Position numbers and translations under genes: made by a program. Below, in pieces: positions 13,244 to 61,127 of a stretch of 64,000 bases of DNA (its first letter is position 1; every line of letters starts with the position of its first letter). Origin of the DNA: an uncultured Acidimicrobiaceae bacterium (GTDB lineage: Bacteria > Actinomycetota > Acidimicrobiia > Spongiisociales > UBA5794); assembly GCA_947259365.1 (NCBI GenBank), contig CAMYMC010000021.1, positions 59,034-123,033 on the forward strand, in the 5' to 3' direction. Under the pieces are notes generated by a model, which saw only the letters and a program-made list of their open reading frames with translations, was not told the origin of the DNA and did not search any database.

Positions 13244-13867
13244 ATGGGCACGCTGCTCGATCGGCTCCGGGTGACGCGTCGGGGGCGCGGGGAAGTGCTT
13301 GCTACGACCTCGTGGCCGGCAGCGGTGATGACCGTCGTCTTTGCGTACTTCGTCGCCGCAGCCTCCCGTTACTCGGTCTTCGCCGTCACCGACCCGCTCC
13401 TGTACCTCATGGTCATCGGAGTCCTGGGGTGGGGCTTCGTCACGGCGTCCATCCGCCTCACCTCGGGAGCCCGCGGCCGGGCCGTCGCCGGGTGGAGATC
13501 CAGCGCCCGCCTCGCCGCGCAGTCTCATCTTCAGCTGGGGACAGCTGCGGCGGCGGTCTGTGCTTCGCCCTCCGCGCGTTCACCGCTCGCTGCCGGAGCG
13601 CTCTGGTTCCCCGCCGCCGTCATCGGTGCGGCGGCGCACGCCTCCTCCACGACCTGGGTGCAAGCCGCCGTATCCGGCGTCGCCATCGCCACGCTGCAGG
13701 GGGCCACGACCGGGCTCGCCGTGGTGCGGCTCGTCGGGCACCTGATCGGAGCTACGAACTGGCGAGCTCGTCGGGGAGGGGGAACCAGCGGAGCGCTTCG
13801 AAGTCGGCGCTCACGTCCGGCTTTCCGAACGGCACCGGAGCCGGGCCGGCGGCGACGCCGCCGATGA
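13244..13867 (+). CDS. hypothetical integral membrane protein
   Basis: High-GC3 frame with several hydrophobic helices (VMTVVFAYFVAAAS, LLYLMVIGVLGWGFV, ALWFPAAVIGAAA). The 3' end overlaps the convergent aminotransferase gene, so the true stop or start is uncertain. Confidence 0.35.
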   Translation: MGTLLDRLRVTRRGRGEVLATTSWPAAVMTVVFAYFVAAASRYSVFAVTDPLLYLMVIGVLGWGFVTASIRLTSGARGRAVAGWRSSARLAAQSHLQLGTAAAAVCASPSARSPLAAGALWFPAAVIGAAAHASSTTWVQAAVSGVAIATLQGATTGLAVVRLVGHLIGATNWRARRGGGTSGALRSRRSRPAFRTAPEPGRRRRRR

Positions 13868-15449
13868 TCCTTCGTGCCTCGTCCAGGTAATCCCGCAACT
13901 TGGTGTCGCCGTCGCGGCGGCGGTCGGGTGTGTAGCGCATCTCCCCGGAGTCGTAGCTGACGTCGTGGAGGCTCATCGGCGGCCGCGCCGGGGGATCCCG
14001 GTGTCTCCACAGGCCGGTATCGGGCTCGAATCGGTAGTAGGGCATGAGGCGCCAACCCTCCTCGGCGACGAGGTGGACGGCCTCGAGTATGAACTCGAAC
14101 ACCTGCTCTGAGATGAAGTAGTTGAAGTTGACGCGAACCCAGCCGGGCTTGATGCCCTCGCAGCCTCCTGCGATCTCTCGCTCGAACTCGTGGGAGCGCT
14201 CGATGTCGATGCCGAGGAGACGATGACCGTAGGGTCCGGCGCACGAGCATCCGCCCCGGGACTGGATGCCGAAGAGGTCGTTGAGGAGGGCGACGACGTA
14301 GTTGTGGTGCAGGTAGCGGCCCTCATGGCGGACGACGAAGGACACGATGGAGAGCCGCTCCGCCCCGGCGTTGCCGAGGATCTCGATGTTCGGGTTCTCC
14401 GACCAGGACGCAATCGCCCGCCGGATGAACGACTCCTCCCTGTCGCGAATCGTATCGGTACCGACCGCCGCTTTGAGCTGGAACACGAGCCCGGTCCGGA
14501 TGGCGCCGATGATGGCCGGGGTCCCGCCCTCCTCGCGGTGCTCGACGTCCTCGAGGTAGCGGTGCTCGAGCGGGTTGACGTAGCTGACGGTGCCGCCCCC
14601 GGGCACGGCCGGCACCCGGTTGGTGAAGAGCTCCCTCCGGGCGACGAGGACGCCGGGCGTCCCGGGGCCCCCGATGAGTTTGTGCGGGGAGATGAAGATC
14701 GCATCCTTGTATGCGAGTTCGGCATCGGGTCCGTCGTCGGCGGGTGACATCGAGATGCCGACGTACGGAGCGGCCGCGGCAACGTCCCACAGCGAGAGTG
14801 CCCCATGCCGGTGGAGGAGCACCGAGAGGGCGCGTACGTCCGTGATGATCCCGGTGACGTTCGACGCCGCCGAGAACGACCCGATCTTGAGCGGCCGATC
14901 GGCGTGGCGCACGAGCTCGTCCTCGAGATGCCCGAGATCGACGCCGCCGTCGAGGTCTTCGTGGATCGTGACCACATCGGCGATCGACTCCCGCCACGGC
15001 AGCTCGTTCGAGTGGTGCTCGTACGGCCCGATGAACACCACCGGGCGCTCCGAGGCCGGAATGTGATCCGTGAGCCGGTAGCGGTCCTCGAGCACGCTGG
15101 GGACGCGCAGCCCGAGCACACGGATGAGACGGTCGATGGCACCGGTGGAGCCGGAGCCACAGAACAGCACGACGTGCTGGTCGCCGGCACCGACGCACCG
15201 CTTGACGATGGTGCGAGCTTCCTCGCGGAAGCGTGTCGTCTGCAGTCCCGTCCCGGAGGACTCGGTGTGTGTGTTCGCATAGAGGGGGAGCACCGTCTCC
15301 CGGATGTAGTCCTCGATGAACGAGAGGGCTCGCCCGGACGCGGTGTAGTCGGCGTACGTGACCCGGCGGGGACCGAAAGGCCCGTCGACGACCTCGTCCT
15401 CACCGATGACCGAAGTGCGGATGTGCTCGATGAGCGCGTTGTCCTCCAT
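13752..15449 (-). CDS. aminotransferase class V-fold PLP-dependent enzyme (cysteine desulfurase-like, long form)
   Basis: 565 aa with the PLP-lysine region (ISPHKLIGGPGTPGV) and a class-V fold signature. The C-terminal extension is typical of long cysteine-desulfurase-related proteins. Confidence 0.85.
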   Translation of the reverse strand: MEDNALIEHIRTSVIGEDEVVDGPFGPRRVTYADYTASGRALSFIEDYIRETVLPLYANTHTESSGTGLQTTRFREEARTIVKRCVGAGDQHVVLFCGSGSTGAIDRLIRVLGLRVPSVLEDRYRLTDHIPASERPVVFIGPYEHHSNELPWRESIADVVTIHEDLDGGVDLGHLEDELVRHADRPLKIGSFSAASNVTGIITDVRALSVLLHRHGALSLWDVAAAAPYVGISMSPADDGPDAELAYKDAIFISPHKLIGGPGTPGVLVARRELFTNRVPAVPGGGTVSYVNPLEHRYLEDVEHREEGGTPAIIGAIRTGLVFQLKAAVGTDTIRDREESFIRRAIASWSENPNIEILGNAGAERLSIVSFVVRHEGRYLHHNYVVALLNDLFGIQSRGGCSCAGPYGHRLLGIDIERSHEFEREIAGGCEGIKPGWVRVNFNYFISEQVFEFILEAVHLVAEEGWRLMPYYRFEPDTGLWRHRDPPARPPMSLHDVSYDSGEMRYTPDRRRDGDTKLRDYLDEARRIIGGVAAGPAPVPFGKPDVSADFEALRWFPLPDELASS

Positions 15450-18290: not shown

Positions 18291-19514
18291 ATGGGCGCCA
18301 CCAGGCTCGCCGTGTTGGTTGCATTGGTCGCTGCGGCATGCGGCGCCGGCGGCGAAGACGGCGGGGGCAATGCCGGCTCGGGAACCTCACCACCGGCGAG
18401 CAGCCTCGCGCCGCAGTCCACGGTGGGCGAGACGACCGCTCCACCCGGCTCGAATCCGTCGACGGAGCCGTCCGTGGTGCGGCCGCCCACGGATGTGGAC
18501 CTCTCCCTGAGCAGCGTTCCGCTCGGCGACGTCTACTTCGACACGTTCGATGGCGGCTCGGTGCGTCTCAGCGACTCGACACCGGCCCTGCGCGCCCGCC
18601 TCCTCGATGCCATTCCACCGATCGACGGTCCGGTCTACGAGTCGGCGGAGTCTGCCGACTCATGGCTCGGCGCGGACGACCTCGTGCTGGGCTACGTGGG
18701 AGGCGGTCGCGCCCACGCGTTTCCCTTCCGCATCCTCAACTTCCACGAGATCGTCAACGACGTCATCGGTGACGTACCGGTGCTCGTGAGCTACTGCCCG
18801 CTGTGCCGGTCGGCGATCGTCTACGAACGTGTCGTCGGGGAAAGGGAGTTGTCGTTCGGCAACACGAGCGCGCTCTACGAGTCGGATCTCGTCATGGTCG
18901 ACCGCGAGACCTTCTCGTACTGGTGGCAGGTTGCGGGCGAAGCGATCGTTGGCGAGCTCACCAGGACGCGGCTCGAACCGCTCCCATCGACTGTGGCGAC
19001 CTGGGCGCAATGGAAACAGTCACATCCCGGCACGATCGTGCTCTCCCGGGACACCGGGTTCGAGCGGCCGTACGACCGCGACCCCTTCCTCGGCTACGAG
19101 GAGATCATCGACGAGGGTCGGTTCGCCTTCCCCGTCGGCGACGCGGCACGGGACCCGCGACTCGCCGCGTCCGCGCTCGTCGTTGCCGTCGAGGTGGGGT
19201 CGGTCGTCAGGTCCTATCCGGTCGAGCGCGTCGCTGGCCCGGTCAACGACACGGTCGACGGCGTGCCGGTGGTCGTTCTGCCGGTGACAGGCGGAGCGGC
19301 GGTCTTCTTTCCCGTGGTCGGCGGTGACGTGCTCGAATTCGTCGAATCGGGCGGGGTCTGGTCGGACACCTCCACCGGCTCGACATGGGACGGGACCGGC
19401 GCCGCGGTGGCCGGCCCGCTCGCCGGGTCCCGGTTGGAGCCGGCTCCCTCCCGCACGTCATTCTGGTTCGCCATCGTCGGTGCCTTTCCCGACACCGAGG
19501 TGTGGGCCGGGTGA
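18291..19514 (+). CDS. DUF3179 domain lipoprotein
   Basis: Lipobox LVAAACGAGG. Conserved FPFRILNFHEIVNDVIGDVPVLVSYCPLCRSA core, paralogous to the 61128..62561 gene. Confidence 0.8.
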   Translation: MGATRLAVLVALVAAACGAGGEDGGGNAGSGTSPPASSLAPQSTVGETTAPPGSNPSTEPSVVRPPTDVDLSLSSVPLGDVYFDTFDGGSVRLSDSTPALRARLLDAIPPIDGPVYESAESADSWLGADDLVLGYVGGGRAHAFPFRILNFHEIVNDVIGDVPVLVSYCPLCRSAIVYERVVGERELSFGNTSALYESDLVMVDRETFSYWWQVAGEAIVGELTRTRLEPLPSTVATWAQWKQSHPGTIVLSRDTGFERPYDRDPFLGYEEIIDEGRFAFPVGDAARDPRLAASALVVAVEVGSVVRSYPVERVAGPVNDTVDGVPVVVLPVTGGAAVFFPVVGGDVLEFVESGGVWSDTSTGSTWDGTGAAVAGPLAGSRLEPAPSRTSFWFAIVGAFPDTEVWAG

Positions 19515-22555: not shown

Positions 22556-23128
22556 CTAGCGCTCCGGCGAACCGGTCCAGCGGTCGATGGCGTCGACCTC
22601 GACGCCGAGATGGCCGAGCGCCCTGGCCGCTGAATGGGTGACGATGTCGTCGAGTGAGACCGGCCGGGTGTAGAACGCCGGCACCGGTGGGAACATCACC
22701 GCGCCCATCTCGACCACTCGTTCTGCGAGCCGGAGGTGGCCGAGATGCAGCGGTGTCTCGCGGACCATGAGGACGAGGGGCCGCCGCTCCTTCAACACGA
22801 CGTCGGCGGCCCTCGTCAACAAGTCGGCGGCGAACGAGTTGGCGATGGCCGACAGCGTCTTGATCGAGCACGGGGCAACGATCATCCCCTCGGTGCGGAA
22901 CGAGCCGCTGGCGATCGACGCTCCGATGTTCTTCACGCTGTGGGTCACCGCGGCGAGCGCCTCGAGGTCGTCCATCGTGAGGTCGGTCTCGATCCCGAGC
23001 GTGGTGCGGGCGGCGGGGGTCACGACGAGGTGGGTCTCGACGTCATCGACGCCGGCCAGCAGCTCGAGCGTCCTGATGCCGTATACGATCCCGCTCGCCC
23101 CGGAGATCCCGACGATGACCCGTCTCAT
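22556..23128 (-). CDS. ubiX: flavin prenyltransferase (UbiX/Pad1 family)
   Basis: 190 aa beginning RRVIVGISGASGIVYGIRTLELL, the flavoprotein fold of UbiX. Immediately downstream of ubiD. Confidence 0.85.
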   Translation of the reverse strand: MRRVIVGISGASGIVYGIRTLELLAGVDDVETHLVVTPAARTTLGIETDLTMDDLEALAAVTHSVKNIGASIASGSFRTEGMIVAPCSIKTLSAIANSFAADLLTRAADVVLKERRPLVLMVRETPLHLGHLRLAERVVEMGAVMFPPVPAFYTRPVSLDDIVTHSAARALGHLGVEVDAIDRWTGSPER

Positions 23129-23135
23129 CCCGACC

Positions 23136-24479
23136 TCACTTCAGGTACCGGCCGAGGTCGACCGGTGGATATACGACCCGCTCGCCGTAGTCGCGACGCT
23201 CCGGCTTGTAGGTGGCGTCGATGCCGAGTTTCGTCGCCACTCCCCGCGTGTCGGCGACCGGGTCCATCTCGTGGCCCTGGGCGCCGGGGGCGGTGAAGAC
23301 GTCCCGCTGCCAGTCGACCCGGTTGGTGATCGCCCACAGCACCTCGGCGGGGTCGTAGATGTCGACGTCGCGATCGACGACGACGACGTTGCGGATGTTG
23401 ATGTGAGCCGTCATCGCCGCCATCGCGAGGTTCTTCGGTTGCCCGGGGTTGTCGCGCTCGATCTGGATGACGGCGAGGAACCCGTTCCCGTACGGGGGAA
23501 TGTGGACGACGGCCGCGGGTTCGATGTGGCGGATGAAGCGCCGCAGCAGCGGCTCGCGGGGCAGGACGTTGCCGATGTAGACGTGTTCGTACCACCCGGG
23601 GATGATCGTCTGGAAGACAGGGTCGTTGCGCCACGAGATCGCGGCGACTTCGACGGTCGGGCTGTTCCACAGCTCCCCGTGGTACCCGTGGAACTCGGCG
23701 AGGGGGCCCTCCGGAGCCCGCTCCTCGGGCCGGATGACACCCTCGATGACGATCTCGGCGTCGGCCGGGATGTCGACGTCCGCGGTCACACCGGGGCACA
23801 CGGGAATGCCGCGGCCCCGGATGGCGCCGGCGATGAGCAGCTCGTCGAGCTCCGTCCGCACCCCCGCCGCGATCGTGATCGCCGGGTCGAGCCCGATGGC
23901 GAGGGCCACGGGGAACGGAGCTGCGGGGTCGTCGCGGCGCTTCATGAACGTGCCGACGTCCCGCCACTCGTTGACGTTGAACCCGAGGAGGTTGCGGCCC
24001 ATGCGGAGCATGCGGTTGTAGGACAGATTCCCTCGCCCGCTCACCGGGTCCTTCGTCACCGTCACCGCACCGGTGATGAACGCGCCGCCGTCGCCCCTGG
24101 AGTGCGTCGGAATGGGGAGGACGCCCAGGTCGACGTCGTCTCCCTTCAGTGTGTTGTCGTGCCAGGCCGCGGCGCCGCCCCGTACCGGTTCGAGCCCACG
24201 TGCCGGGTCGAGGACGCGCTCCATCTCGTCGACGACGTCGTCGACGGTGCATCCCAGGGCGAGGGCGGCTCGATCCCGACTTGCCACCGCTCCGGCGAAG
24301 ATGGGCCACGGGCTGTCGACGACGTTGTCGAACAACGGCGCCCCGCCGCCGGTGCGGGCGAGCGTGGCCGCGACGTCTGCGAGCTCGTGGTCGAGCGACA
24401 CCGGTGTCGAGATGCGGGCGAGGCGTCCTGCGGCCTCGAGTGCGCCGATGTAGGTTCGCAGGTCGGTGATGTCGCTCAT
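23136..24479 (-). CDS. ubiD: UbiD-family (prFMN-dependent) decarboxylase
   Basis: 447 aa from ATG 24479 (MSDITDLRTYIGALEAAGRLARI...). UbiD signatures include ITGAVTVTKDP, AEFHGYHGEL and IVVVDRDVDIYDPAEVLWAI. The N-terminal extension of the 950-aa track ORF is rejected. Confidence 0.85.
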   Translation of the reverse strand: MSDITDLRTYIGALEAAGRLARISTPVSLDHELADVAATLARTGGGAPLFDNVVDSPWPIFAGAVASRDRAALALGCTVDDVVDEMERVLDPARGLEPVRGGAAAWHDNTLKGDDVDLGVLPIPTHSRGDGGAFITGAVTVTKDPVSGRGNLSYNRMLRMGRNLLGFNVNEWRDVGTFMKRRDDPAAPFPVALAIGLDPAITIAAGVRTELDELLIAGAIRGRGIPVCPGVTADVDIPADAEIVIEGVIRPEERAPEGPLAEFHGYHGELWNSPTVEVAAISWRNDPVFQTIIPGWYEHVYIGNVLPREPLLRRFIRHIEPAAVVHIPPYGNGFLAVIQIERDNPGQPKNLAMAAMTAHINIRNVVVVDRDVDIYDPAEVLWAITNRVDWQRDVFTAPGAQGHEMDPVADTRGVATKLGIDATYKPERRDYGERVVYPPVDLGRYLK

Positions 24480-24602
24480 GGGGATGGCCCAAGGACGGTA
24501 GCGGGTCGTAGCGTGCGCGGCCCGGCGGACGTGTCGCCGGAGCCGCGGAACCTCCGGCAGGGCCGACGGCGTCGGACCGGGAGGCGCCCAAGGAGGAGGG
24601 GT

Positions 24603-25073
24603 ATGAGGACCGCGATGGTGGCCCCGACGCTGGCCGGGCTTCTCTTTGTCGCGTCGTGCGGCGCGAGTGATCCCCCGGCGGCGGAACGTGAGGCGGACCC
24701 CCCACCGGCTTCGGTCACGGCCGCCCCGGAGCCGCCGGCCGCCGGTGAGATTCGCGGCGGCATCGAGGCGCTGCAGATCGACGGGGTGTGGGTGTTCCGC
24801 CACGATCCCGATGCCGGCGATGACGCACTCCACTCCGGCACGCCCGAGATCGTCGGCGGATGTCTCTACGTCGACGACACGATCGTCGTCTGGCACGCCG
24901 ACCGGATGGGCGACGCCGCCGCCGCCGTAGCTGCCGCGAACGCCGGCGCGGATCCCCCGCTCCTCATCGGCGGGGGAGGCGTGAGCCTCGACGAAGGCGG
25001 CGACGCGACGCAGATCCCGGCCGTCATCACGCAGCGGTGCCGGACGACCGCCGTGTGGTTCGGGTCGCCGTGA
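24603..25073 (+). CDS. hypothetical lipoprotein
   Basis: AAGGAGGAGGGG RBS then ATG 24603. Lipobox LLFVASCGAS. It lies in the tail of a long antisense ORF but has its own strong RBS. Confidence 0.55.
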   Translation: MRTAMVAPTLAGLLFVASCGASDPPAAEREADPPPASVTAAPEPPAAGEIRGGIEALQIDGVWVFRHDPDAGDDALHSGTPEIVGGCLYVDDTIVVWHADRMGDAAAAVAAANAGADPPLLIGGGGVSLDEGGDATQIPAVITQRCRTTAVWFGSP

Positions 25074-25128
25074 ACCCGGCCACCTCCTCCAGTTAGGCTC
25101 CGGCCACTCCCGGCGGGAAGGAGCATCG

Positions 25129-26151
25129 GTGGAGGCGTTTCTGCGAGGGCTGCCGAAGGCCGAGCTCCATGTGCACATCGAGGGCACGCTCGAGCCCGAG
25201 CTGCTCTTCGAGATGGCGGCCCGCAACTCGGTTCCGCTGCGGTACGACGACGTCGACGAGCTGCGCGCCGCGTACCGGTTCTCCGGGCTCCAGGACTTCC
25301 TCGATGTGTACAACGAAGGAGCCACCGTGCTCCAGACGAGTCGCGACTTCACCGAGCTCGCGATCGCGTATCTGGAGCGGGCGGCGGCCGACGGGGTGCG
25401 CCGCGCCGAGATCTTCTTCGACCCCCAGACCCACACCGAGCGCGGCATCGCGATGGGCGCGGTGGTCGAAGGGCTCGCCGCGGGATGCGCCGAAGCCGGG
25501 GCCCGGCTCGGCGTCTCCACAGGGCTCATCCCCTGTTTCGTGAGACATCTCCCCCAGGAGTCGGCGATGGAAGCGCTCGAAGCGGCGCTCGCGCACCGTG
25601 AGCATCTCCTCGGCGTCGGGCTCGATTCCACGGAGCTGGGCCATCCGCCGTCCGAGTTCGCCGACGTCTTTGCCAGGGCGCGCAGCGAGGGGCTCCATGC
25701 CGTGGCCCACGCCGGGGAGGAGGGGCCGCCCGAGTACATCAGCGGCGCCCTCGACCTGCTCGGTGCGGAGCGGATCGACCACGGGGTGAGGTGCCTGGAG
25801 CACCCTGCCCTCGTCGCGCGGCTACGCGACGATGCAGTCCCGCTCACCGTGTGCCCGCTCTCCAACGTGAAGCTCGCGGTGGTGGCGCGCCTCGAGGACC
25901 ACCCCCTCCCGAAGATGATCGATGCCGGCCTCGTCGTGACGATCAACTCCGACGACCCCGCGTACTTCGGCGGATACGTCGGCGACAACTACGTCGCGGT
26001 CCACGAAGAGCTGGGGCTGGACCTGGCGGCGATGGTGGCCCTGGCCCGGGCATCGATCGAGGCGAGCTTCGCGGCCGTCGAGGTCAAGCACCGTCTCCTC
26101 ACCGATCTCGAGACGTACATCGCGGCGACGGGTGGCCAAGCCGCAGGCTGA
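25129..26151 (+). CDS. add: adenosine deaminase
   Basis: LPKAELHVHIEGTL zinc-binding motif, SLGLDSTELG, HAGE and TINSDDPAYFG, all hallmarks of adenosine/adenine deaminase. Confidence 0.85.
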   Translation: MEAFLRGLPKAELHVHIEGTLEPELLFEMAARNSVPLRYDDVDELRAAYRFSGLQDFLDVYNEGATVLQTSRDFTELAIAYLERAAADGVRRAEIFFDPQTHTERGIAMGAVVEGLAAGCAEAGARLGVSTGLIPCFVRHLPQESAMEALEAALAHREHLLGVGLDSTELGHPPSEFADVFARARSEGLHAVAHAGEEGPPEYISGALDLLGAERIDHGVRCLEHPALVARLRDDAVPLTVCPLSNVKLAVVARLEDHPLPKMIDAGLVVTINSDDPAYFGGYVGDNYVAVHEELGLDLAAMVALARASIEASFAAVEVKHRLLTDLETYIAATGGQAAG

Positions 26152-26175: not shown

Positions 26176-27570
26176 TCAGGCGGCCGAAGGGTCGGTGACC
26201 TGGCCGAGGAAGAGGATCTCGCCGGTCGACGTGCTCTCGATCCAGAAGAGGAACGGGCGGTCGACGGTGAGCGCCGCCGGCTGGGGGAGCGACGTGATCC
26301 CGAAGACGAGCGCCGTGGCGGCCGCAGCCTCGGTCCCGTCTTCGTCGAGGGCGATGAACGTCTTGTGGAGCGCATCCTGGACGTAGAGGTCCCTCGGCTC
26401 GGTGATCCCGGTGAGGTCGGCGGTGCCGTCGTCGCCGGGCACCGGCACCACGAATGCGGTGTTCATCCCCAGCGCCTGGAGGGCGGCCTTGAGTCCCACG
26501 TCGGACTCGAACTCGAATCGGGGCATCGCCAGCTCGACCTGGAAGTCACCCCAGGCGACGGCGAGGTCGTCTGCGGTGATTCGGGCCGCCAGCTCGGCGG
26601 GGGACCCGGCCCGGGGCACGGCGACGACCATCGCCGCGTCTCCGGCGTAGCGGAGGCGCACCGCTTCGAAGAGATCGGTGGCGGCGTAGCCGGTGCGCAT
26701 GTCGGCGTGCATCATCGGCACCTCGACCGTGGTCCCGTCGAGGCGGGTGAACGGCGCCGGTGCGGTGCGCTCCGGGTCGAAGGGGACCTCCCAGTTCGCC
26801 CTGAACCAGATGGCATTCACGAGGACGAGACGCGTCAACGTGGTGATGACGCCGTCGGGGATGAGGTCCTCGATCCGGCCCTCGGTGGCGTCTTCGACCC
26901 AGCCGTTGATGATGTCAGCCGATGCGTCCGGAGCGGAGGCGAAGTCGACGAGGCGGAGCCCGGCGCCGTAGCTCGTCGCCAGCCGCTCGAGGTAGGGCTC
27001 GAGAAACGGGTAGCCGCCCTGCCCCCACGCCGAGTTGGCCGGCCGGACGACGAAGGGCTCGCGGGTGTCCTCCTCGCCGGCGGGGGCGGCCTTCGACGCG
27101 AGAGCCCCCTCGATGTGCGTCCGCACCCTGTGCATGGCCTCCTCGTCGCCGGTGAGGTGAAGAACGGCCGCAATCTCGGCGGCGGTGGTGTTGCGTGCTC
27201 CCGGCAACAGCATCGAGAGCGCCGTCGCCACCGAGTACGGCGAGATCATGACGTTGTCGTCTCCGGCGACGACGCCGAGCAGGTCGAGGCCGAAAGCGGC
27301 ATCGGCCCGGGCGACGGCGGCCAGCTCGGATTCAGTGACGGCGACGTCCGCGATCGGTGCGTCGAAGCGGACGACCTCGCCCGGTACGAAGGGGACGGCA
27401 CCGGGTGTGGGGTCCGGCGCGGGCGGCGAGCCGGGAGGTGTCGAGCCGGGAGACGTCGAGTCGGGGGTGCGGCCCGGCGGCGTCGCCGCGTCGTCTGCCC
27501 CGGCGCAGGCTGCGGCGATCAGCGAGATGACGGCGAACGCGGCTGCGACCCTGCTCCGGTCCATACCCAT
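26176..27570 (-). CDS. serpin (serine protease inhibitor) family lipoprotein
   Basis: 464 aa from ATG 27570. Lipobox LIAAACAG. Serpin core motifs (NAIWFRANWEVPFD, TEAAAATA hinge region, reactive centre loop before PFLFWIE). Confidence 0.8.
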   Translation of the reverse strand: MGMDRSRVAAAFAVISLIAAACAGADDAATPPGRTPDSTSPGSTPPGSPPAPDPTPGAVPFVPGEVVRFDAPIADVAVTESELAAVARADAAFGLDLLGVVAGDDNVMISPYSVATALSMLLPGARNTTAAEIAAVLHLTGDEEAMHRVRTHIEGALASKAAPAGEEDTREPFVVRPANSAWGQGGYPFLEPYLERLATSYGAGLRLVDFASAPDASADIINGWVEDATEGRIEDLIPDGVITTLTRLVLVNAIWFRANWEVPFDPERTAPAPFTRLDGTTVEVPMMHADMRTGYAATDLFEAVRLRYAGDAAMVVAVPRAGSPAELAARITADDLAVAWGDFQVELAMPRFEFESDVGLKAALQALGMNTAFVVPVPGDDGTADLTGITEPRDLYVQDALHKTFIALDEDGTEAAAATALVFGITSLPQPAALTVDRPFLFWIESTSTGEILFLGQVTDPSAA

Positions 27571-27625: not shown

Positions 27626-28405
27626 TCACGAGAAGACGGTGTTGGGCCTGTCCTCTTTGACGCCGTCGAGGCGGATGTCGACCTTCTCGTTGTAGAACGA
27701 CAGATACCCGGCGATCCGGGAGGTCTCCTCGACCGGGGACGGGTACCACCACACGATGTTCTCGTACCGGGCGCCGTCGACATCGACGTGGTAGTAGCTC
27801 GCCGTGCCCTTGTACGGGCACGAGGTGTGCAGGTCCGACGGCTCGAGGAGGTCCATCCGCACGTCGGTCTTCGGGATGTAGTAGCGGGTCGGGAGGCCGG
27901 TTTCGAACACGAACCTGGCATTCGTCGAGTCGGCCACCTTCGTGCCGCCGACGAAGACCTCCACACGGCGGGAGCTGGGGAGCACGTCGACGCGGGTATA
28001 CGGGTCGCGGGGATGGACGTACACCTGCTCGTCCTCCTCGAACCACGCGTCCATCGCCCCCCAGGAGAAGGTGAGGTGGCCTTCGAGGCCCTCGATCTTG
28101 CTCTCGGTGTACCAGCGTGCGGCTCCGGGGGCCTCTTTGCCCCCGGCCTTGACGGTGTGGAGCTCGGCATCGCCGCGGCTCGGCGAGTGGTGCGTCTCAC
28201 CGGTGGGGATGAGCAGATCGGTGTCGACATCGTCCGCGAGGAAGTAGTACGTGGGGTAGAACGGCTTCTCCCAGACGAGCTTCACCCGGATCGTGTCGGC
28301 GACGAGCTCGCCGCCGAGATAGACCCGAACCCGCTTGCCCCCGTTCTCGACGCGCACCCGTCCCCGGGCTGCGGTGGCGTCCATGTCGTGCTCCCTCGTC
28401 GTCAT
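27626..28405 (-). CDS. DUF427 domain protein (two tandem repeats)
   Basis: Duplicated RVRVYLGGELVADT / RVEVFVGGTKVADS modules typical of DUF427. ATG 28405 preceded by GGGGAA. Confidence 0.7.
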   Translation of the reverse strand: MTTREHDMDATAARGRVRVENGGKRVRVYLGGELVADTIRVKLVWEKPFYPTYYFLADDVDTDLLIPTGETHHSPSRGDAELHTVKAGGKEAPGAARWYTESKIEGLEGHLTFSWGAMDAWFEEDEQVYVHPRDPYTRVDVLPSSRRVEVFVGGTKVADSTNARFVFETGLPTRYYIPKTDVRMDLLEPSDLHTSCPYKGTASYYHVDVDGARYENIVWWYPSPVEETSRIAGYLSFYNEKVDIRLDGVKEDRPNTVFS

Positions 28406-28509
28406 GTCGTTCCCCATCCGAACGCGTTCCGGCAGCGAACGATTCCCGGGACCGGGCATCTCGCCCCGGCGGAGTGGCAAACTGAGGTGACCCGACCCGA
28501 GAGAGCCGC

Positions 28510-30957
28510 GTGCGAATCCTCATCGCAGACTCCTTCCCCGGGCCTCAGATCGAGCGTCTCGAGGCCATGGGCCACGACGTCACCGTCGATCCGGGCCGGG
28601 ATGCCGGCGCGCTGGCGGAGGTCGTCGCCGGCTACGAAGCCCTCGTCGTGCGCAGTACCAAGGTGACGGCGGAGACGATCGAGGCTGCCGACCGCCTCGC
28701 CCTCATCGTCCGGGCCGGCGCCGGGGTGAACACGATCGACACGAGGGCGGCTGCGGACCACGGCGTCATCGTGGCCAACACGCCTGGCAAGAACGCCGTC
28801 GCCGTCGCCGAGTTGACGATGGGTCTCATCATGGCGATCGACCGCAGCATCCCTGACAACGTGGCGGAGCTCCGGGCGGGGGTGTGGAACAAGAAGCGCT
28901 GGTCGGAGGCCGACGGACTCCACGGCAAGCGCCTCGGCATCGTCGGCATGGGTGCCATCGGGGCCGAGGTCGCTCGCCGGGCGCATGCGTTCGGGATGGA
29001 GATCGTCGTCGTCGACCGCCCGGGCCGGCGACCGGAAGTCGGCGCCCTCATCGAGGATCTCCGTTGCCGGCTCGTGCCCGATCTCCCCAGGCTGCTGGGG
29101 ACGTCCGACATCGTGACGTTTCACATCCCGGCATCCGGCAACACCGCCGGCATGATCAACCGAGAGATGCTCGGCCATCTGCGGCTGGGCACCGTCCTCA
29201 TCAACACGTCCCGGGGCGACATCATCGACGAGGAGGCGCTTCTCGAGGCGATCGAGGCCAAGGGCCTGCGCGTCGGCCTCGACGTGTACGCCGACGAACC
29301 CGGGGAGGGCTCGGGCACCTTCACCTCGGCGCTCGCCGCCCATCCCAACGTGTACGGGACCCACCACATCGGGGCGTCGACGAAGCAGGCGCAGCGGTCC
29401 ATCGCCGACGAAGTCGTCGCCATCATCGAGAGCTTCGGGCGCGGTGCGGTGAGAAACGCGGTGAACGTCGCTGCCGAGCCGGTCGGAGCGTCAGTCATCA
29501 CGGTGCGCCACTACGACAGGGTCGGCGTGCTCGCTGGGGTCCTCGAGGTGCTGCGTCGCGCCAATCTCAACGTGGAGCAGATGGAGAACACCGTATTCGC
29601 CGGGGCCAATGCGGCGAGCGCGTCGATCCACCTCTCTGCGCTTCCCGACTCGGCAACCGTCGAGGCCATCTCCGGGCTCGAGCACGTCATCGCGGTCTCC
29701 GTCGGCGCGGTCGGCGCCTCGAGCGCCCTCGTGCGGCCCTTCCCCGGGTTCCTGCCCCGGCCGGACATCGCCGACGAGGTAGCGGCGCCTCCGCTGTCGG
29801 TCATCACCGCGGATCGATACGACCGCCTCGTCGCCGACCACCCGCTGTCGATTCTCCACGTTCTCCGCACCGCGATCGACACCGCCGACGGGGTGCCGGA
29901 TCCGGCACTCGCCGACGCCCACGGCGCCGCGCACCTCGCCCGGCTCATCGACGATGGCGCCCTCTTGCCCCAGCCTGCTCCTGCCTACTACCTGTACCGG
30001 GTCGGCACGCAGCAGGGTTCCCACATCGGCGTCATCGCCGAGGTCGCCACGTCGGGGATCGGTGAAGGGACGGTGCGCCGACACGAGGGCACCAGGCGTG
30101 AAACCGAGGACCTCGTCCTGCGCCACCTCACGACCGTGCGTGCCCACACCGACCCGGTGGCGATGACGTATCGCACCGACCCGGGTCTCGCCGACGTCCT
30201 CACCGCCCGCTGCGCCGCCGAGACCCCCGTCCTCGACTTCGAGTCGGACGACGGGGTCCGTCACCAACTGTGGGTTGTCGCAGATGCGGCCGGTGTCAAC
30301 GAAATCGGGACCCGCCTCGCCATGGTCGAGACGCTGTACATCATCGACGGGCACCACCGTTCGGTGGCGGCGCGGAGGCTGGCTGCCACCGAGGCCTCCG
30401 AGAACCGGGGCCACACGGGAGCGGAGCCGTACAACTACTTCCCGGCGGTGCTCTTCGCCGAGGACCAGCTCGTGCTCGAGGGCTACCACCGGGCCCTCAC
30501 CGATCTCGGATCGATGACACCGCGCGAGTTCCTCGCTTCGATGCGAGACAGGTTCGACGTCGAGGACCTCGCCATACCGTGGGCCGAGGAGGCGCGGCCC
30601 CGCGAGCCGGGAGCGGTCGCCATGGTCGTCGACGGCGAGTGGTACCGGGTCACGCTGCCGAAGCCGCCCGCAGACGGCGACGTCTACGCCCGACTCGACG
30701 CCGTCGTGCTCCAGGAGCACATCCTCGGACCGCTGCTCGGCATCACCGAGCCCGCCACCGATCCGAGACTCCAGTACGTCCCCGGCCCCGCCGGCCTCGG
30801 CGAGTTCAGCCGACTCAGTGCGATCGTCGGATTCGCCCTCCACCCGCCGTCGACCGCCGAGGTGATGGCGGTCGCGGATGAGGGCCTCGTCATGCCGCCG
30901 AAGTCCACCTGGTTCGAGCCCAAGGTCCGCGCCGGGCTCGTCGTCCGGAAGTTCTGA
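28510..30957 (+). CDS. serA: D-3-phosphoglycerate dehydrogenase (SerA, with ACT domain) fused in-frame to a DUF1015 domain
   Basis: The first ~395 aa carry the Rossmann motif GIVGMGAIGAEVARRA, catalytic NTSRGDIIDEEAL / HIGASTKQAQ and an ACT domain. A DUF1015 module (LVRPFPGFLPRPD...YIIDGHHR...LQEHILGPLLGI) follows with no stop codon. The whole is one 815-aa ORF. Confidence 0.75.
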   Translation: MRILIADSFPGPQIERLEAMGHDVTVDPGRDAGALAEVVAGYEALVVRSTKVTAETIEAADRLALIVRAGAGVNTIDTRAAADHGVIVANTPGKNAVAVAELTMGLIMAIDRSIPDNVAELRAGVWNKKRWSEADGLHGKRLGIVGMGAIGAEVARRAHAFGMEIVVVDRPGRRPEVGALIEDLRCRLVPDLPRLLGTSDIVTFHIPASGNTAGMINREMLGHLRLGTVLINTSRGDIIDEEALLEAIEAKGLRVGLDVYADEPGEGSGTFTSALAAHPNVYGTHHIGASTKQAQRSIADEVVAIIESFGRGAVRNAVNVAAEPVGASVITVRHYDRVGVLAGVLEVLRRANLNVEQMENTVFAGANAASASIHLSALPDSATVEAISGLEHVIAVSVGAVGASSALVRPFPGFLPRPDIADEVAAPPLSVITADRYDRLVADHPLSILHVLRTAIDTADGVPDPALADAHGAAHLARLIDDGALLPQPAPAYYLYRVGTQQGSHIGVIAEVATSGIGEGTVRRHEGTRRETEDLVLRHLTTVRAHTDPVAMTYRTDPGLADVLTARCAAETPVLDFESDDGVRHQLWVVADAAGVNEIGTRLAMVETLYIIDGHHRSVAARRLAATEASENRGHTGAEPYNYFPAVLFAEDQLVLEGYHRALTDLGSMTPREFLASMRDRFDVEDLAIPWAEEARPREPGAVAMVVDGEWYRVTLPKPPADGDVYARLDAVVLQEHILGPLLGITEPATDPRLQYVPGPAGLGEFSRLSAIVGFALHPPSTAEVMAVADEGLVMPPKSTWFEPKVRAGLVVRKF

Positions 30958-30968
30958 GCCGGCCGGGA

Positions 30969-31820
30969 ATGGCCACAGACGTCGTCCTGCTCGGAACCGG
31001 CACGCCCCGCACCGTCCCGGGGAGCAGCGGCCCGGCGACGGCCGTGATCGCCGACGGCACGCCGTATGTCTTCGATTGCGGGCCGGGGGTCGCGATCCAG
31101 CTCTCCTCCGGATTCCATCACGGGATCGAGGGGCTCGCGTTGGCGGGTGTCGAGCACGTCTTCATCACCCACCTCCACTCGGACCACACCCTCGGCCTGG
31201 CGTCGCTGATGCTGACGCCGTGGATGTTCGGACGGGCGGTTCCGCTCGTGGTGCGGGGCCCGCTCGGCACGGCGGCGATGGCACGCCACGTCGCCGCGGC
31301 ATACGAGGCCGACGTCGCCAAGCGGATCCACAGTGAGCCGCTCGAACCCGGAGGTCACGCAGTGGTAGCAACCGACATCGGGCCCGGGGTCGTCCACGAG
31401 GACGATCGCGTCAGCGTCGAGGCGTTTGCCGTCGAGCACGGCGACTGGGTGGCGGCGGTGCACGGGCCGACGCCGGCCCTCGGCTACCGGGTGCGCTCCG
31501 CCGACCGCACCGTCGTCATCTCGGGAGACACCGGTCCGTTCCCCTCCATGGAGGCGACGTACGGAGGCTGTGACGTGCTCGTCCACGAGGTCTACTCGAG
31601 CGCCGGCCTCGTCTCCCGTCCCCCTCGATGGCGGGCCTATCACGAGCGAGCGCACACCTCGGGCGAGACGTTGGGCCGGCTGGCGGCGCGGCTCCAGCCC
31701 GGGATCCTCGTGCTCACGCATCAGTTGCTGTGGAACACCCCCGAGGGCGACCTCGTCGACGAGGTCGCCGGCGTCTACGACGGCGTCGTGCGCTACGGCC
31801 GCGACCTCGACGTGATCTGA
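30969..31820 (+). CDS. MBL-fold metallo-hydrolase (RNase Z/ElaC-like)
   Basis: HxHxDH motif (ITHLHSDHTLG) and overall beta-lactamase fold. Confidence 0.8.
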   Translation: MATDVVLLGTGTPRTVPGSSGPATAVIADGTPYVFDCGPGVAIQLSSGFHHGIEGLALAGVEHVFITHLHSDHTLGLASLMLTPWMFGRAVPLVVRGPLGTAAMARHVAAAYEADVAKRIHSEPLEPGGHAVVATDIGPGVVHEDDRVSVEAFAVEHGDWVAAVHGPTPALGYRVRSADRTVVISGDTGPFPSMEATYGGCDVLVHEVYSSAGLVSRPPRWRAYHERAHTSGETLGRLAARLQPGILVLTHQLLWNTPEGDLVDEVAGVYDGVVRYGRDLDVI

Positions 31821-55750: not shown

Positions 55751-56896
55751 GTGAGCCTCGTCATCTTCCCCTTCAAACAGGAACGCCCCGACGTCCTCAT
55801 CGCGAACGTGCGGAAGGCGTCCCGGCACGCTCGCGTGTCGGAGGTACTCGGCATCGGCTACGAGAACGAGGAGACCTACCGCGCCCTCGAGACGGCGGCG
55901 CCCGCGATCGCGGGCGAGACCGGCGCCGAGATCAACCTCGCACTCCAGCGGCGCATCGGCAGCCTGCGGCCGGGGAAGGGCGATGCGATGAACACGGGAC
56001 TCGACTACTTCCTCGCGTCGTCCCACGACCGCCTCCACTTCTACGACGCCGACATCGTCAGCTTCGGTGAGGGCTGGATCGACAAGGCGGAGACCGCGGC
56101 AGACCGCGGCTACGACGTCGTCCGCCACTACTTCCCCCGGGCCCGGACCGACGCAATGATCACCTGGATGATCACGAGGACGGGGTTCTCTCTCCTGTGG
56201 CCGGACTCCGAACTCGTCCACATCGAGCAGCCCCTCGGGGGCGAACTGTTGCTCACCCGAGCGGCGGCGAAGGTCCTCGTCGACGAACCCCGGGTGCGGG
56301 CGCAGAGCGACTGGGGCATCGACACCGTCTACACGTTCGTCCTGACGAGAGCCGGGCTCCCGCTGGCCGAGGTCTACATCCCGGAGGGCAAGATCCACAA
56401 GCTCTACGGGGCGCTCTCCGACCTGAGGACGATGCTGAGGGAGTGCTTCGCCGCGGTGCAGAGCCTCCGTGGGCTCGACATCGGCTCCGGCTACGGCCAC
56501 GAGATCGAGCGCCCCGGCCCGGTGCCGGCAGCGGTGGCGAGCCAGAACGGCTACAACCTCGAGACCACGCTGCGGCTTCTCACCGAGAACTGGACCCAAG
56601 GCCAGGAGGAGTTGCTCGAGCTGTTTCCCGGCCACGTCCGGGACGGGTTGCTCGAAGCCCGGACCTACCCCCGCTTCGGGTACATGGACGACGAGACGTG
56701 GTACGAGTCCTATCGCATCCTGCTCGACCATTTCGATCCGGCCGGCGAAGACTGGGCCGAGCTCCTCTTCAAGCTCTGGGTCGCCCGGGTGCTGCATTAC
56801 ACCGCGAACGTCGCCCTGCGCGGATTCGACTTCTCCTCCCGCTACCTCCACGACATGGTGGTGGCCTACGCCAAGCGATCGGCACGGGCCGGCTGA
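55751..56896 (+). CDS. glucosyl-3-phosphoglycerate synthase-like retaining glycosyltransferase (GT81-like)
   Basis: RPGKGDAMNTGL and FYDADIVSF (DxD) correspond to the GpgS motifs RPGKGEALWRSL / FIDSDLI as I remember them. GT-A fold with C-terminal extension. Confidence 0.7.
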   Translation: MSLVIFPFKQERPDVLIANVRKASRHARVSEVLGIGYENEETYRALETAAPAIAGETGAEINLALQRRIGSLRPGKGDAMNTGLDYFLASSHDRLHFYDADIVSFGEGWIDKAETAADRGYDVVRHYFPRARTDAMITWMITRTGFSLLWPDSELVHIEQPLGGELLLTRAAAKVLVDEPRVRAQSDWGIDTVYTFVLTRAGLPLAEVYIPEGKIHKLYGALSDLRTMLRECFAAVQSLRGLDIGSGYGHEIERPGPVPAAVASQNGYNLETTLRLLTENWTQGQEELLELFPGHVRDGLLEARTYPRFGYMDDETWYESYRILLDHFDPAGEDWAELLFKLWVARVLHYTANVALRGFDFSSRYLHDMVVAYAKRSARAG

Positions 56897-56969: not shown

Positions 56970-58271
56970 GTGACGGAGGCGAGTGTGCGTATCGAGGTAC
57001 CGATCAACTCGGAGCGGTTGGGCGCCGTCCACCTCTTCGACACCGTCGATGTCTACGAGCTCGATTCCGGTCTCGAGAAGAGCGTGAGCGAGGTCGATCT
57101 CGGCTGGCACCAGGTCCGACACGTCCCGTTCGACGAGATCAACGAGATCGAGCGGCGGATGGCCATCGTCGTGCCCTGCAAGGACGAGCGGCTCAAGCTC
57201 CTCAAGGGCGTGCTCTCGGGCATCCCGCACGACTGTCTCGTCATCCTCGTCTCCAACAGCGCAGGGGTCCCGGTCGATCGTTTCGAGATGGAGCGGGAGG
57301 CGCTCGAGGCGTTCTGCCGTCTTCTCGACCGGAGCGCCATCATCGTCCACCAGCGTGACTCGGGTCTCGGTGCGGCGTTCGTCGAGGCGGGCATGCCCGA
57401 GCTCGTCGACGACGAGGGCAGGGTCCGTCACGGCAAGGGCGAGGGAATGATGGTGGGTGTGGCCCTCGCCAAGCTCACGGGCCGGGACATCGTCGGGTTC
57501 ATCGATGCCGACAACTACGTGCCCGGAGCCGTCCACGAGTACGTCAAGTCCTACGCCGCGGGATTCGCCGTCAGCCCGTCGCCTCACACCATGGTGCGGA
57601 TCTCCTGGAGCTCGAAGCCGAAGATCCAGGGCGGCGAGCTGTTCTTCAACCGCTGGGGCCGCACCTCACAGGTCACGAACCGGTTCCTCAACCTGCTGCT
57701 CTCCGAGATCACCGGGTTCGGGACCGAGATCATCACGACCGGCAACTCCGGCGAGCATGCGATCTGTCTCGACCTCGCCCTCCTCATGAACTTCGGGAGC
57801 GGCTTCTCGGTAGAGCCCTACGAGTACCTGAACCTCTTCGAGCTCTTCGGGGGGCTTGCGGAGTCGCCGCACCCAGAGGTCATGCGACAGGGGGTGCGGG
57901 TGTACCAGATCGAGACGCGCAACCCCCACTTCCACGAGGACAAGGGTGCCGATCACCTCCAGGAAATGCGGCTCCAGGCCCTCAATGCTCTCTACCAGTC
58001 GCCGATCTGCGGTCCGCGGACCCAAGAGGAGATCAGCGCATTCTTGGGAGGACAGGGGACGTCGCCGGCGGATGATGCGACCGCGGTCACCAGCTACCCG
58101 GCGCTCGCCAACCTCGATTGGAACCGGTTCCTGGAGCGCCTCGCCTCGGTACCGACGTTCGAGCAGTTCGAGTTCATCGAGTCGGCGCACGTCGTCACGC
58201 GCGCCCCGATCTCATTCCCCTCGGTGGAGGGGGATGATGAGGGCCATCGCCGGGAGGCGCGACCCGCTTGA
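56970..58271 (+). CDS. mpgS: mannosyl-3-phosphoglycerate synthase (GT55 family)
   Basis: VVPCKDERLKLLKGVLSGIPHDCLVILVSNS, RHGKGEGMMVGVALAKL, GFIDADNYVPGAVHEYVKSYAAGF and RNPHFHEDKG match archaeal/Thermus MpgS blocks as I recall them. GTG start could be 56970 or 56982. Confidence 0.8.
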   Translation: MTEASVRIEVPINSERLGAVHLFDTVDVYELDSGLEKSVSEVDLGWHQVRHVPFDEINEIERRMAIVVPCKDERLKLLKGVLSGIPHDCLVILVSNSAGVPVDRFEMEREALEAFCRLLDRSAIIVHQRDSGLGAAFVEAGMPELVDDEGRVRHGKGEGMMVGVALAKLTGRDIVGFIDADNYVPGAVHEYVKSYAAGFAVSPSPHTMVRISWSSKPKIQGGELFFNRWGRTSQVTNRFLNLLLSEITGFGTEIITTGNSGEHAICLDLALLMNFGSGFSVEPYEYLNLFELFGGLAESPHPEVMRQGVRVYQIETRNPHFHEDKGADHLQEMRLQALNALYQSPICGPRTQEEISAFLGGQGTSPADDATAVTSYPALANLDWNRFLERLASVPTFEQFEFIESAHVVTRAPISFPSVEGDDEGHRREARPA

Positions 58272-59071
58272 GCAGCGGCCGACCCGTACTCCTGTTCACC
58301 GACCTCGACGGGAGCCTGCTCGGGGAGCACGACTACCAGCCGGCAGAGGCCGCGTCCGCGGTCGCGGCACTGCGATCGAGCGGCGTCGGCGTCGTCTTCT
58401 GCTCGGCGAAGACGGAGACCGAACAACTGGCGATCCGCCACCGACTGGGGGTGACGGGGCCCTACATCGTCGAGAACGGGGGAGCCCTGCACGTCGATGG
58501 GAACACGACCCGCTTTGGCGTGTCGTATGCCCGGGTGTGCGCCGGCCTGGAGGACGCTGCACGGGCTGCGGGCGTCGTCGTGCGCGGGTACGCGTCGATG
58601 ACCGCGGATGAGGTGTCGGCCGTCACCGGGCTCGACCCGGATGCGGCGGGGAGGGCGAAAGACCGCCGCTATAGCGAGACGTTCGTCATCGAGGAGGGCT
58701 CGTCGTTCTCTCCTGCCGCCCTCGCTGCGGAGCTGCAGGCGCGAGGCCTCCGGCTCGTGCGGGGCTCCAGGTTCTGGACGGCCCAGGGCGACCACGACAA
58801 AGGAACCGCGGTGCGGGCCCTGCTCGATCTCTCCAGGGGCCAGGACGCTCCACGTACGTACGCAATCGGCGACGGGCCCAACGACGCCGCGATGCTGGCT
58901 GCGGTCGACGTGCCGATGCTCGTGAAGCGCCGAGACGGGACGTGGACCGACGTCGACGTCCCCGGCGTCGTGAAGATCGACGGGGTGGGACCGGCGGGCT
59001 GGGCCAAGGGTGCGGCCACCATCGTGCGTGCTCTCGGCCTCGTGAGCGGACCCCGTCAGATCCCCCGGTAG
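58268..59071 (+). CDS. mpgP: mannosyl-3-phosphoglycerate phosphatase (HAD-IIB, YedP family)
   Basis: HAD motif I (LLFTDLDGSLL), motif II (FCSAKT) and motif IV (IGDGPNDAAML). There is a 4-nt overlap with mpgS. Confidence 0.8.
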   Translation: MSSGRPVLLFTDLDGSLLGEHDYQPAEAASAVAALRSSGVGVVFCSAKTETEQLAIRHRLGVTGPYIVENGGALHVDGNTTRFGVSYARVCAGLEDAARAAGVVVRGYASMTADEVSAVTGLDPDAAGRAKDRRYSETFVIEEGSSFSPAALAAELQARGLRLVRGSRFWTAQGDHDKGTAVRALLDLSRGQDAPRTYAIGDGPNDAAMLAAVDVPMLVKRRDGTWTDVDVPGVVKIDGVGPAGWAKGAATIVRALGLVSGPRQIPR

Positions 59072-61014: not shown

Positions 61015-61127
61015 GAGTTGCTCCGGGGAGACGAGGGCGGCAGGTTAGGGCAGTCGTGAGGCGCGGCGGGCGGTGGGCCCATCGCCGAACCCGACGTATG
61101 CTCGGGCCGACCCGACGGAGCGCAATC

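Follow-up and report, generated by a model that had tools for sequence, protein, structure and literature searches.

A SerA-DUF1015 fusion in an uncultured Acidimicrobiaceae bacterium, a candidate single-chain enzyme for the first and last steps of serine synthesis

Introduction

In the genome of an uncultured Acidimicrobiaceae bacterium (NCBI GenBank assembly GCA_947259365.1), one open reading frame (ORF) joins a D-3-phosphoglycerate dehydrogenase (PGDH, SerA), complete with its ACT domain, to a DUF1015 module. The gene lies on a stretch of 64,000 nucleotides (nt) with a GC content of 69% (contig CAMYMC010000021.1, positions 59,034 to 123,033 of the forward strand), hereafter called the window, and all coordinates refer to it. 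A preliminary description of this DNA, made from the sequence alone, had treated DUF1015 as a domain with no assigned function, and had suggested that its fusion to the first enzyme of serine biosynthesis pointed to a missing phosphoserine phosphatase or aminotransferase activity, or to a regulatory partner. The locus raises two questions: is the fusion real, and what does its C-terminal half contribute to serine metabolism?

The first of those statements is outdated. As recounted by Price et al. ('GapMind 2026', bioRxiv 10.1101/2024.10.14.618325, July 2026 version), Hofmann et al. (2018) proposed that the DUF1015 protein of Clostridioides difficile (CDIF630erm_01132), whose gene shares an operon with serA and serC, is the missing phosphoserine phosphatase. 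Price et al. themselves reported that CBO1128 from Clostridium botulinum rescues an Escherichia coli serB::kan mutant, that DUF1015 homologs often adjoin serA and serC, and that 47 of 50 genomes with close serA-linked homologs have no confident SerB. These authors also tied DUF1015 to SbnI by Foldseek and named the family SerBK, leaving open whether it works as a reverse kinase or as a phosphatase, and with which nucleotide. The suggested phosphoserine phosphatase is the published role of the family, and the functional link had been right in substance but was already in print. The covalent SerA-ACT-SerBK architecture is apparently undescribed, and SerA-DUF1015 fusions are mentioned neither in the SerBK preprint nor in the other literature searched.

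From its architecture, recurrence, split-gene synteny, stop-loss origin, fold and motif conservation, we read this gene as a natural fusion of serA and serBK, whose single polypeptide would carry the first and last activities of the serine pathway with an ACT sensor between them (probability about 0.72).

Results and discussion

A complete dehydrogenase runs in frame into a complete DUF1015 module

The fused gene (28510..30957, + strand) is a single ORF of 815 codons plus stop, whose GTG start stands just behind a purine-rich GAGAGAG stretch. Its PGDH catalytic module, recognised by Pfam, NCBIfam and PDB relatives, spans residues 3-319 (28516..29466, +; 2-Hacid_dh, PF00389, 97 bits) and contains the NAD-binding domain (residues 104-288; 28819-29373, +; 2-Hacid_dh_C, PF02826, 151 bits, E 3e-44), with GMGAIG as its GxGxxG motif (residues 146-151; 28945-28962, +). 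The ACT domain, placed at residues 328-399 (29491..29706, +) by AlphaFold secondary structure, a weak Pfam match and alignment with E. coli SerA, is followed by a junction of only 8 residues, AVGASSAL (residues 400-407; 29707..29730, +). The DUF1015/SerBK module, predicted to comprise a ParB/Srx-type core and a second domain as in SerK and SbnI, then begins at VRPF and fills residues 408-815 (29731..30954, +). DUF1015 (PF06245) matches residues 408-731 with 240.5 bits against a gathering threshold of 25.8 (E 3e-71), covering profile positions 1-324 of 325, and this half is 49-52% identical to standalone members of 412 amino acids (aa). Domain matches, alignment and structural model thus agree with the preliminary account of a single 815-aa ORF containing a complete dehydrogenase with catalytic Arg/Glu/His and ACT domain, and of a full DUF1015 module starting at the RPF motif (V408-R-P-F).

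The codon-position pattern of GC content (about 0.8-1.0 at third and about 0.3-0.6 at second positions) is continuous across 29680-29770. In the full-length AlphaFold model (mean predicted local distance difference test, pLDDT, 87; predicted template modelling score, pTM, 0.55), low confidence between the ACT and DUF1015 domains is confined to residues 401-404. Judging from the M-S-x-P-L-I-R-P-F start of split relatives, the linker would combine what was once the end of serA with the original N-terminal leader of DUF1015. An Rfam scan of the window found no RNA family, and a promoter and terminator scan around the fused gene returned nothing above chance.

The fusion recurs in independent assemblies

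A fusion of this kind could be an assembly or sequencing artefact, arising where a stop or a frameshift between two adjacent genes has been lost. Errors of this sort do occur among the relatives: several database homologs are visibly frameshifted (P0043, P0045, P0047 and P0025), so that not every entry presented as a fusion is trustworthy, the L010 locus shifts frame, and indel errors could account for part of the mixture of fused and split forms in the P0021 lineage, seen at 90% identity or more. The SerA-DUF1015 fusion is nevertheless genuine, because the same junction, with a few substitutions, is present in other, non-identical NCBI assemblies (P0386 and P0387, at least 90% identical), and because six orthologs of 53-65% identity, from separate NCBI, ENA and JGI assemblies of independent projects, keep it in frame and at identical length. 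One of the six (L005) was confirmed in frame and without a stop on a 1.9-Mb contig. Moreover, a second and distant fusion group (about 40% identity, 750-790 aa) includes an isolate, Marmoricola sp. URHB0036 (L001), and the gene is likewise fused in frame with no stop in an independent read assembly (L002). Together with the coding-frame signal, which shows no break at the junction, these data leave the artefact a negligible probability, and the fusion seen in the preliminary description stands.

The second gene downstream of the Marmoricola fusion encodes an amino-acid permease; the gene that separates the two runs in the opposite orientation and encodes an APH-type kinase.

The DUF1015 half resembles free serine kinases in fold and motifs

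Searches of PDB sequences with the DUF1015 half (phmmer) and with a profile of 59 family members found no relevant relative, so the link to proteins of known structure described here rests on fold comparison. An AlphaFold model of the DUF1015 half, built on the 59 members (pLDDT 93.2, pTM 0.90), was compared with the PDB by Foldseek. Nine significant matches were obtained, all of the free serine kinase type: Thermococcus SerK (5X0B) and its mutants (E 1e-8), the Pyrococcus homolog 1VK1 and staphylococcal SbnI (E 8e-8 to 2e-6), the next match having an E of 0.02. The model has the two-domain SerK/SbnI fold, and we regard DUF1015 as a structural relative of SerK and SbnI, not as a member of their family.

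Alignments through a sequence-detectable SbnI homolog exposed the motifs of the two kinases. SerK has H29-E30, whose glutamate is the residue mutated in PDB entries, and Y-x-x-x-D-G-H-H-R; SbnI has H19-E20, D58-G-V-H-R62 and, near its C-terminus, V-P-A-G-V-T-R-F. The DUF1015 half carries H525-E526 within R-R-H-E (residues 523-526; 30076..30087, +), Y610-x-x-D613-G-H-H-R617 (D-G-H-H-R, residues 613-617; 30346..30360, +) and M-P-P-K-S-T-W-F-E-P-K (residues 795-805; 30892..30924, +), the last of which aligns with the SbnI VPAGVTRF, and H-E, DGHHR and MPPKSTWF are invariant in the 59 DUF1015 proteins. A profile-profile comparison by hhalign was statistically weak (E 0.007, low probability), with the second and third motifs in register and the H-E motif outside. 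On these alignments, H525-E526 would correspond to the site of the catalytic base in the kinases (H29-E30 in SerK, H19-E20 in SbnI), and D613-G-H-H-R617 would match the SerK DGHHR, the SbnI D58-G-V-H-R62 and the phosphate-binding GxxR box of the ParB fold.

At motif level DUF1015 resembles SerK (TK0378 of Thermococcus kodakarensis, 5X0B) and SbnI (Staphylococcus aureus and S. pseudintermedius; 5UJE, 5UJD, 6NR6) in H-E, Y-x-x-x-D-G-H-H-R and P-x-x-x-T-x-F, but it shows no HMMER-level sequence similarity to them and is about 170 residues longer. Judged by motifs and secondary structure, the N-terminus appears to be extended and core strands 2 and 3 to be separated by an insert of about 50 residues. 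With the characterised SerBK members (CDIF630erm_01132, CBO1128 and BT1151 of Bacteroides thetaiotaomicron) it shares the Pfam family, the partnership with serA and serC, the predicted kinase-like fold and the invariant motifs; those proteins, however, are standalone and about 410 aa long, whereas here the module is covalently joined to the C-terminus of an ACT-bearing SerA.

The other catalytic role that had been considered, that of an aminotransferase, is disfavoured: the fold is ParB/Srx-like, matching free serine kinases and not a pyridoxal phosphate enzyme, and a genuine SerC is encoded separately in related operons.

The N-terminal half is most similar to true phosphoglycerate dehydrogenases

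PGDH models head the NCBIfam matches of the N-terminal half, TIGR01327 being the best, and the nearest solved structures are true PGDHs (human PHGDH, E. coli SerA and Mycobacterium tuberculosis SerA). Residues R240, E269 and H292 are catalytic in E. coli SerA, and H344, N346 and N364 form the serine site of its ACT domain. The alignment of this enzyme with the fusion, which runs from the catalytic domain into the ACT domain, equates R235 (29212-29214, +) with R240, E263 (29296-29298, +) with E269 and H286 (29365-29367, +) with H292; across 29 fusions, R235 and H286 are invariant and E263 nearly so. Residues 328-399 were modelled by AlphaFold as a beta-alpha-beta-beta-alpha-beta ACT fold, in which the ligand-loop residues H334, D336 and N354 align with H344, N346 and N364 and are invariant in the same 29 fusions. 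When the ACT segment alone was used as query, no solved relative was retrieved, the alignment with E. coli SerA requiring the longer query.

Compared with type II, E. coli-like SerA (PDB 1PSD, 1YBA, 2P9C), the fusion has the same order of catalytic, NAD-binding and single ACT domains, keeps the R/E/H catalytic residues and has H334 and N354 as the counterparts of the serine ligands H344 and N364. It differs in that the C-terminus of the ACT domain runs into a second enzyme after 8 residues, an extension that may alter ACT-mediated tetramerisation.

The N-terminal half could instead be another D-2-hydroxyacid dehydrogenase, such as a 2-oxoglutarate or hydroxypyruvate reductase, in which case the pair would act on some other phosphorylated or hydroxy-acid substrate. 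The NCBIfam equivalog thresholds for PGDH are missed, JGI labels some homologs 'D-3-phosphoglycerate dehydrogenase / 2-oxoglutarate reductase', and neither serC nor serB lies within the window. However, the best NCBIfam and PDB matches are all PGDHs, the E. coli SerA alignment extends into the ACT domain, and relatives occur in operons with a bona fide SerC, all of which makes a different dehydrogenase improbable.

DUF1015 genes are widely paired with serA

Eighty loci from species-representative genomes were classified by frame-aware tblastn, adjacency being defined as same strand and within 2.5 kb. As these loci were the best-ranked matches to the full query, the fractions are biased, but serA adjoins DUF1015 in 51 of the 80, with serA first in 25 and DUF1015 first in 26; four others had serA only, one had the two halves far apart, and no intact SerA-DUF1015 fusion was found among the 80. 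A stop-to-stop ORF classification had pointed to a fusion at L010, which was rejected as its translation proved to be a wrong-frame ORF typical of high-GC DNA.

The serA-linked loci span more than 12 phyla and include Clostridia, Bacteroidota, Acidobacteriota, Planctomycetota, Rhodothermales, Gemmatimonadales, Chloroflexia, Myxococcota, Gammaproteobacteria and Actinomycetota. DUF1015 precedes serA in Acidobacteriota, Rhodothermales, Planctomycetota, Gemmatimonadales, Chloroflexia, Myxococcales and Fibrobacteraceae (loci L015, L025, L027-L040, L045-L050, L058, L059, L063 and L067), and serA comes first in Clostridia, Bacteroides and Actinomycetota. The pairing is conserved, then, and its polarity is not. 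Five loci have a further gene (about 365-390 aa) between the two, in every case one for a class-V aminotransferase; the three tested against NCBIfam proved to be bona fide SerC (NF003764, scores of about 450 bits where the cut-off is 253), revealing serA-serC-DUF1015 operons, among others in Acidimicrobiia and Nocardioidaceae. The link to serine biosynthesis drawn in the preliminary description, which had called for such a survey of DUF1015 neighbourhoods, is therefore upheld.

The DUF1015 half could alternatively be a non-catalytic regulator or scaffold, a nucleotide- or serine-sensing ParB-fold module that modulates SerA. ParB-fold proteins are often nucleotide switches or scaffolds (PNAS 2025), the listing in the same survey implies that a DUF1015 protein did not bind nucleoside triphosphates (NTPs) in the DRaCALA assay, and in the fusion the module is placed directly after an allosteric ACT domain. 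Against this, the equivalent of the SerK/SbnI catalytic glutamate and the DGHHR box are invariant in 59 diverse members, a standalone DUF1015 protein makes up for the loss of serB in E. coli, a host with a SerA unrelated to that of the donor, and about one third of the sampled DUF1015 loci (24 of 76) have no serA in their 6-kb flanks. A purely regulatory partner, one of the possibilities raised initially, is accordingly the less likely option given the invariant catalytic motifs, and we give it little credence.

The fusion is an end-to-end join of two neighbouring genes

We searched 1.84 billion cluster representatives exhaustively with the fusion, using HMMER, and obtained many standalone SerA-ACT proteins (about 400 aa) aligning to residues 1 to about 398 and many standalone DUF1015 proteins (about 412 aa) aligning from about residue 405 to 815. 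Since proteins of the parental types align to one half only, the fusion is an end-to-end join of two complete parents. Among the best 150 matches, which were inspected, three were two-domain SerA-DUF1015 representatives, and the fusion is rare, amounting to about three clusters at 50% identity.

Synteny places the fusion in a slot otherwise held by split genes. This slot, X, is preceded by a divergent DUF427 gene (27629..28480, - strand, in the window), a conserved neighbour of split and fused loci alike that is given here for context, and is followed by FdhD and a 190-aa ORF and then, in the window, L003 and L004 but not in L005, by two SDR genes. It holds the fusion in the window and in L005, and split serA and DUF1015 genes in the metagenomic relatives L003 (4997-7248) and L004 (5042-7239). 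There, a serA of 320-335 aa without ACT is followed by a DUF1015 gene of 412-415 aa whose GTG start overlaps the serA TGA stop (GTGA), an overlap that indicates translational coupling. The serA of both loci stops exactly where the ACT domain begins in the fusion; either the ACT domain was lost after fission or the lineages diverged before the fusion.

The P0021 cluster (P0021, P0389, P0391 and P0396) is informative on the mechanism, as strains at least 90% identical have either the split or the fused form. The split form comprises a SerA-ACT of 427 aa and a DUF1015 protein of 467-470 aa beginning MTTGAAAPDAPRHGLPVLLPF, and the fused form is one 905-aa ORF that keeps the DUF1015 initiator Met and leader internally. 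This pattern looks like the mark of stop-codon loss with read-through of a short spacer, and the cluster either records a fusion in the making or owes its two forms to indel errors in a low-complexity linker. On our reading, the window fusion arose from an ACT-bearing serA (about 400 aa) and a serBK (DUF1015, about 412 aa), normally adjacent and translationally coupled, when the stop codon of serA was lost and translation read into the start of DUF1015. In a neighbour-joining tree of DUF1015 domains, fusions of the window clade are sister to the syntenic split genes and Nocardioidaceae-type fusions sit on a separate long branch; the tree fails to separate one ancient fusion followed by fission from two independent fusions.

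Eleven nt downstream of the fusion lies a gene for an MBL-fold hydrolase (30969..31820, +), with weak RNase Z-like and GntH-like matches below cut-offs, which is possibly co-transcribed with it. Being absent from the syntenic L003-L005, this gene is an insertion specific to this genome.

Biosynthesis, assimilation or both

In the mechanism that we favour, the SerA half would catalyse step 1 of the phosphorylated serine pathway and the C-terminal ParB/Srx-fold module, related to SerK and SbnI, would interconvert O-phosphoserine and serine, filling the SerB role at the last step, possibly reversibly, with SerC supplied from elsewhere in the genome. The single chain would fix expression of the two activities at 1:1 and probably hold both in one complex. 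Catalysis by the two halves, the direction in which flux runs and channelling, if any, are what we infer here, and the DUF1015 half may be a reversible kinase rather than a phosphatase.

Flux could also run the other way in the same architecture, toward serine assimilation or O-phosphoserine supply, and this alternative partly overlaps the biosynthetic reading if the enzyme is bidirectional. DUF1015 would then phosphorylate serine (ATP/ADP), SerC would convert the product into 3-phosphohydroxypyruvate and the SerA half would reduce this to 3-phosphoglycerate; or else the phosphoserine would feed an O-phosphoserine-dependent cysteine synthase, as in Thermococcus. All steps are thermodynamically favourable in this direction (bioRxiv 10.1101/2024.10.14.618325), BT1151 is required for growth with L-serine as nitrogen source (same preprint), and in T. 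kodakarensis SerK cooperates with SerA and SerC both to assimilate serine and to make cysteine (Makino et al. 2016). The conserved kinase fold and motifs, as well as the permease gene near the Marmoricola fusion, would also fit. On the other hand, the rescue of a serB mutant by CBO1128 means that net flux from phosphoserine to serine is possible, serB is missing from most genomes with a serA-linked DUF1015, the ACT domain has retained serine-binding residues of the feedback type usual in biosynthetic SerA, and the serA-serC-DUF1015 operons look biosynthetic. In sum, the conserved ACT ligand residues and these operons speak for biosynthesis, whereas thermodynamics, the BT1151 phenotype and the kinase fold speak for a reversible or assimilatory enzyme. 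We hold the assimilatory direction to be possible, though clearly the less probable of the two.

Several points weigh against a biosynthetic SerA-SerBK enzyme. With respect to the SerA half, the PGDH equivalog cut-offs are missed by the two models concerned, TIGR01327 (265 against 454 bits) and NF008759 (206 against 404 bits), which extend over longer or different C-terminal regions; the Pfam ACT match is weak (residues 329-359, 23.1 bits, under the 27-bit cut-off); and D336 takes the place of an Asn (E. coli N346) at one of the three serine-ligand positions. With respect to the DUF1015 half, identity to the function-tested clostridial and Bacteroides lineages is about 29-31% (best segment), a reversed serine kinase would be thermodynamically unfavourable (equilibrium constant about 4e-4; bioRxiv 10.1101/2024.10.14.618325), and a purified Firmicutes DUF1015 protein is not listed among the 11 NTP binders of a survey of the ParB-CTPase fold (PNAS 2025), a caveat for a simple NTP-dependent mechanism. 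Finally, the two fused activities are non-consecutive steps of the pathway, no serC lies next to the fusion or the split genes in the window, L001, L003, L004 and L005, neither SerC nor SerB was found among the proteins of the 64-kb window, and the placement of the domains relative to each other is uncertain in the full-length model (pTM 0.55).

SerA is also joined to SbnI-like kinases

A further family of fusions, undescribed to our knowledge, bears on the last step. Four proteins of 582-583 aa (P0111, P0087, P0101 and P0117; loci L086-L089), from an Acidimicrobiia metagenome-assembled genome (P0111) and from metagenomes, join a SerA that lacks ACT to a full-length free serine kinase of the SbnI type. 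The C-terminal module of the P0111 family matches SbnI over residues 8-252 (E 3e-19) and SerK with an E of 5e-6; no serine genes were found near these fusions in L086-L089. Both fusion types combine a SerA N-terminal half with a C-terminal ParB-fold module of the serine-kinase type, but the SbnI-like type lacks ACT and its C-terminal module is a canonical SbnI homolog by sequence, whereas the window fusion has an ACT domain and DUF1015. In addition, two proteins of 688-703 aa (P0078 and P0082) have SerA domains fused to a class-V aminotransferase (SerC-like) domain.

SerA has thus been fused independently to two different serine-kinase-fold families, and this strengthens the kinase-fold reading of the last step. 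The two sets of fusions support a last step catalysed by a serine-kinase fold over one catalysed by an HAD phosphatase, and suggest that SerA and SerBK act together physically. The SerA-DUF1015 fusion provides independent Rosetta-stone evidence for SerBK as the answer to the missing phosphoserine phosphatase of many bacteria, and extends that solution to Acidimicrobiia and Nocardioidaceae. A wider generalisation, that in Actinomycetota and beyond ParB/Srx-fold serine/phosphoserine enzymes are a general SerA partner and take the place of HAD-type SerB, is tentative and in our estimation rather unlikely to hold. If it were true, the capture by SerA of two sequence-unrelated lineages, DUF1015 and SbnI-like, would imply a physical association of the first and last activities, and in the ACT-bearing form the sensor could respond to the end product released by the C-terminal module next to it. 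A complex of this kind might also explain net serine synthesis by a 'reverse kinase' (for instance phosphoserine + ADP -> serine + ATP), with flux driven by local substrate supply or by hydrolysis.

No new field is opened by these observations, the neighbourhood link and the complementation data being already public. The single-chain enzyme lends itself well to biochemical and structural work on kinase versus phosphatase activity, the nucleotide used and the direction of the reaction.

Other genes in the window

Some proteins of the window were considered as candidates for SerC or SerB and rejected. The class-V aminotransferase-fold protein at 13755-15449 is SufS-like and far below cut-off, and of the two HAD proteins one is a type II dehalogenase and the other a mannosyl-3-phosphoglycerate phosphatase; a class-I/II aminotransferase is HisC. 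The phosphatase gene (58268-59071, +) lies near one for a mannosylglycerate synthase (55751-56896, +; glycosyltransferase and C-terminal domains, 364 bits), and these compatible-solute genes hint at a halotolerant or thermotolerant lifestyle.

Upstream of the fusion, a strong serpin match (PF00079, 313 bits), in a protein with a signal-like or low-complexity N-terminal region, is encoded at 26179-27561 (-); serpins are uncommon in bacteria. A UbiD-family decarboxylase gene (23139-25988, -) adjoins one for a flavoprotein of the UbiX-like prenyltransferase family (22559-23128, -). The Pfam domains of the 950-aa UbiD-family ORF begin only at residue 515, which reflects either a long unannotated N-terminal extension or an over-extended ORF. 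The window also encodes two paralogous DUF3179 proteins (18291-19514, + and 61056-62561, +).

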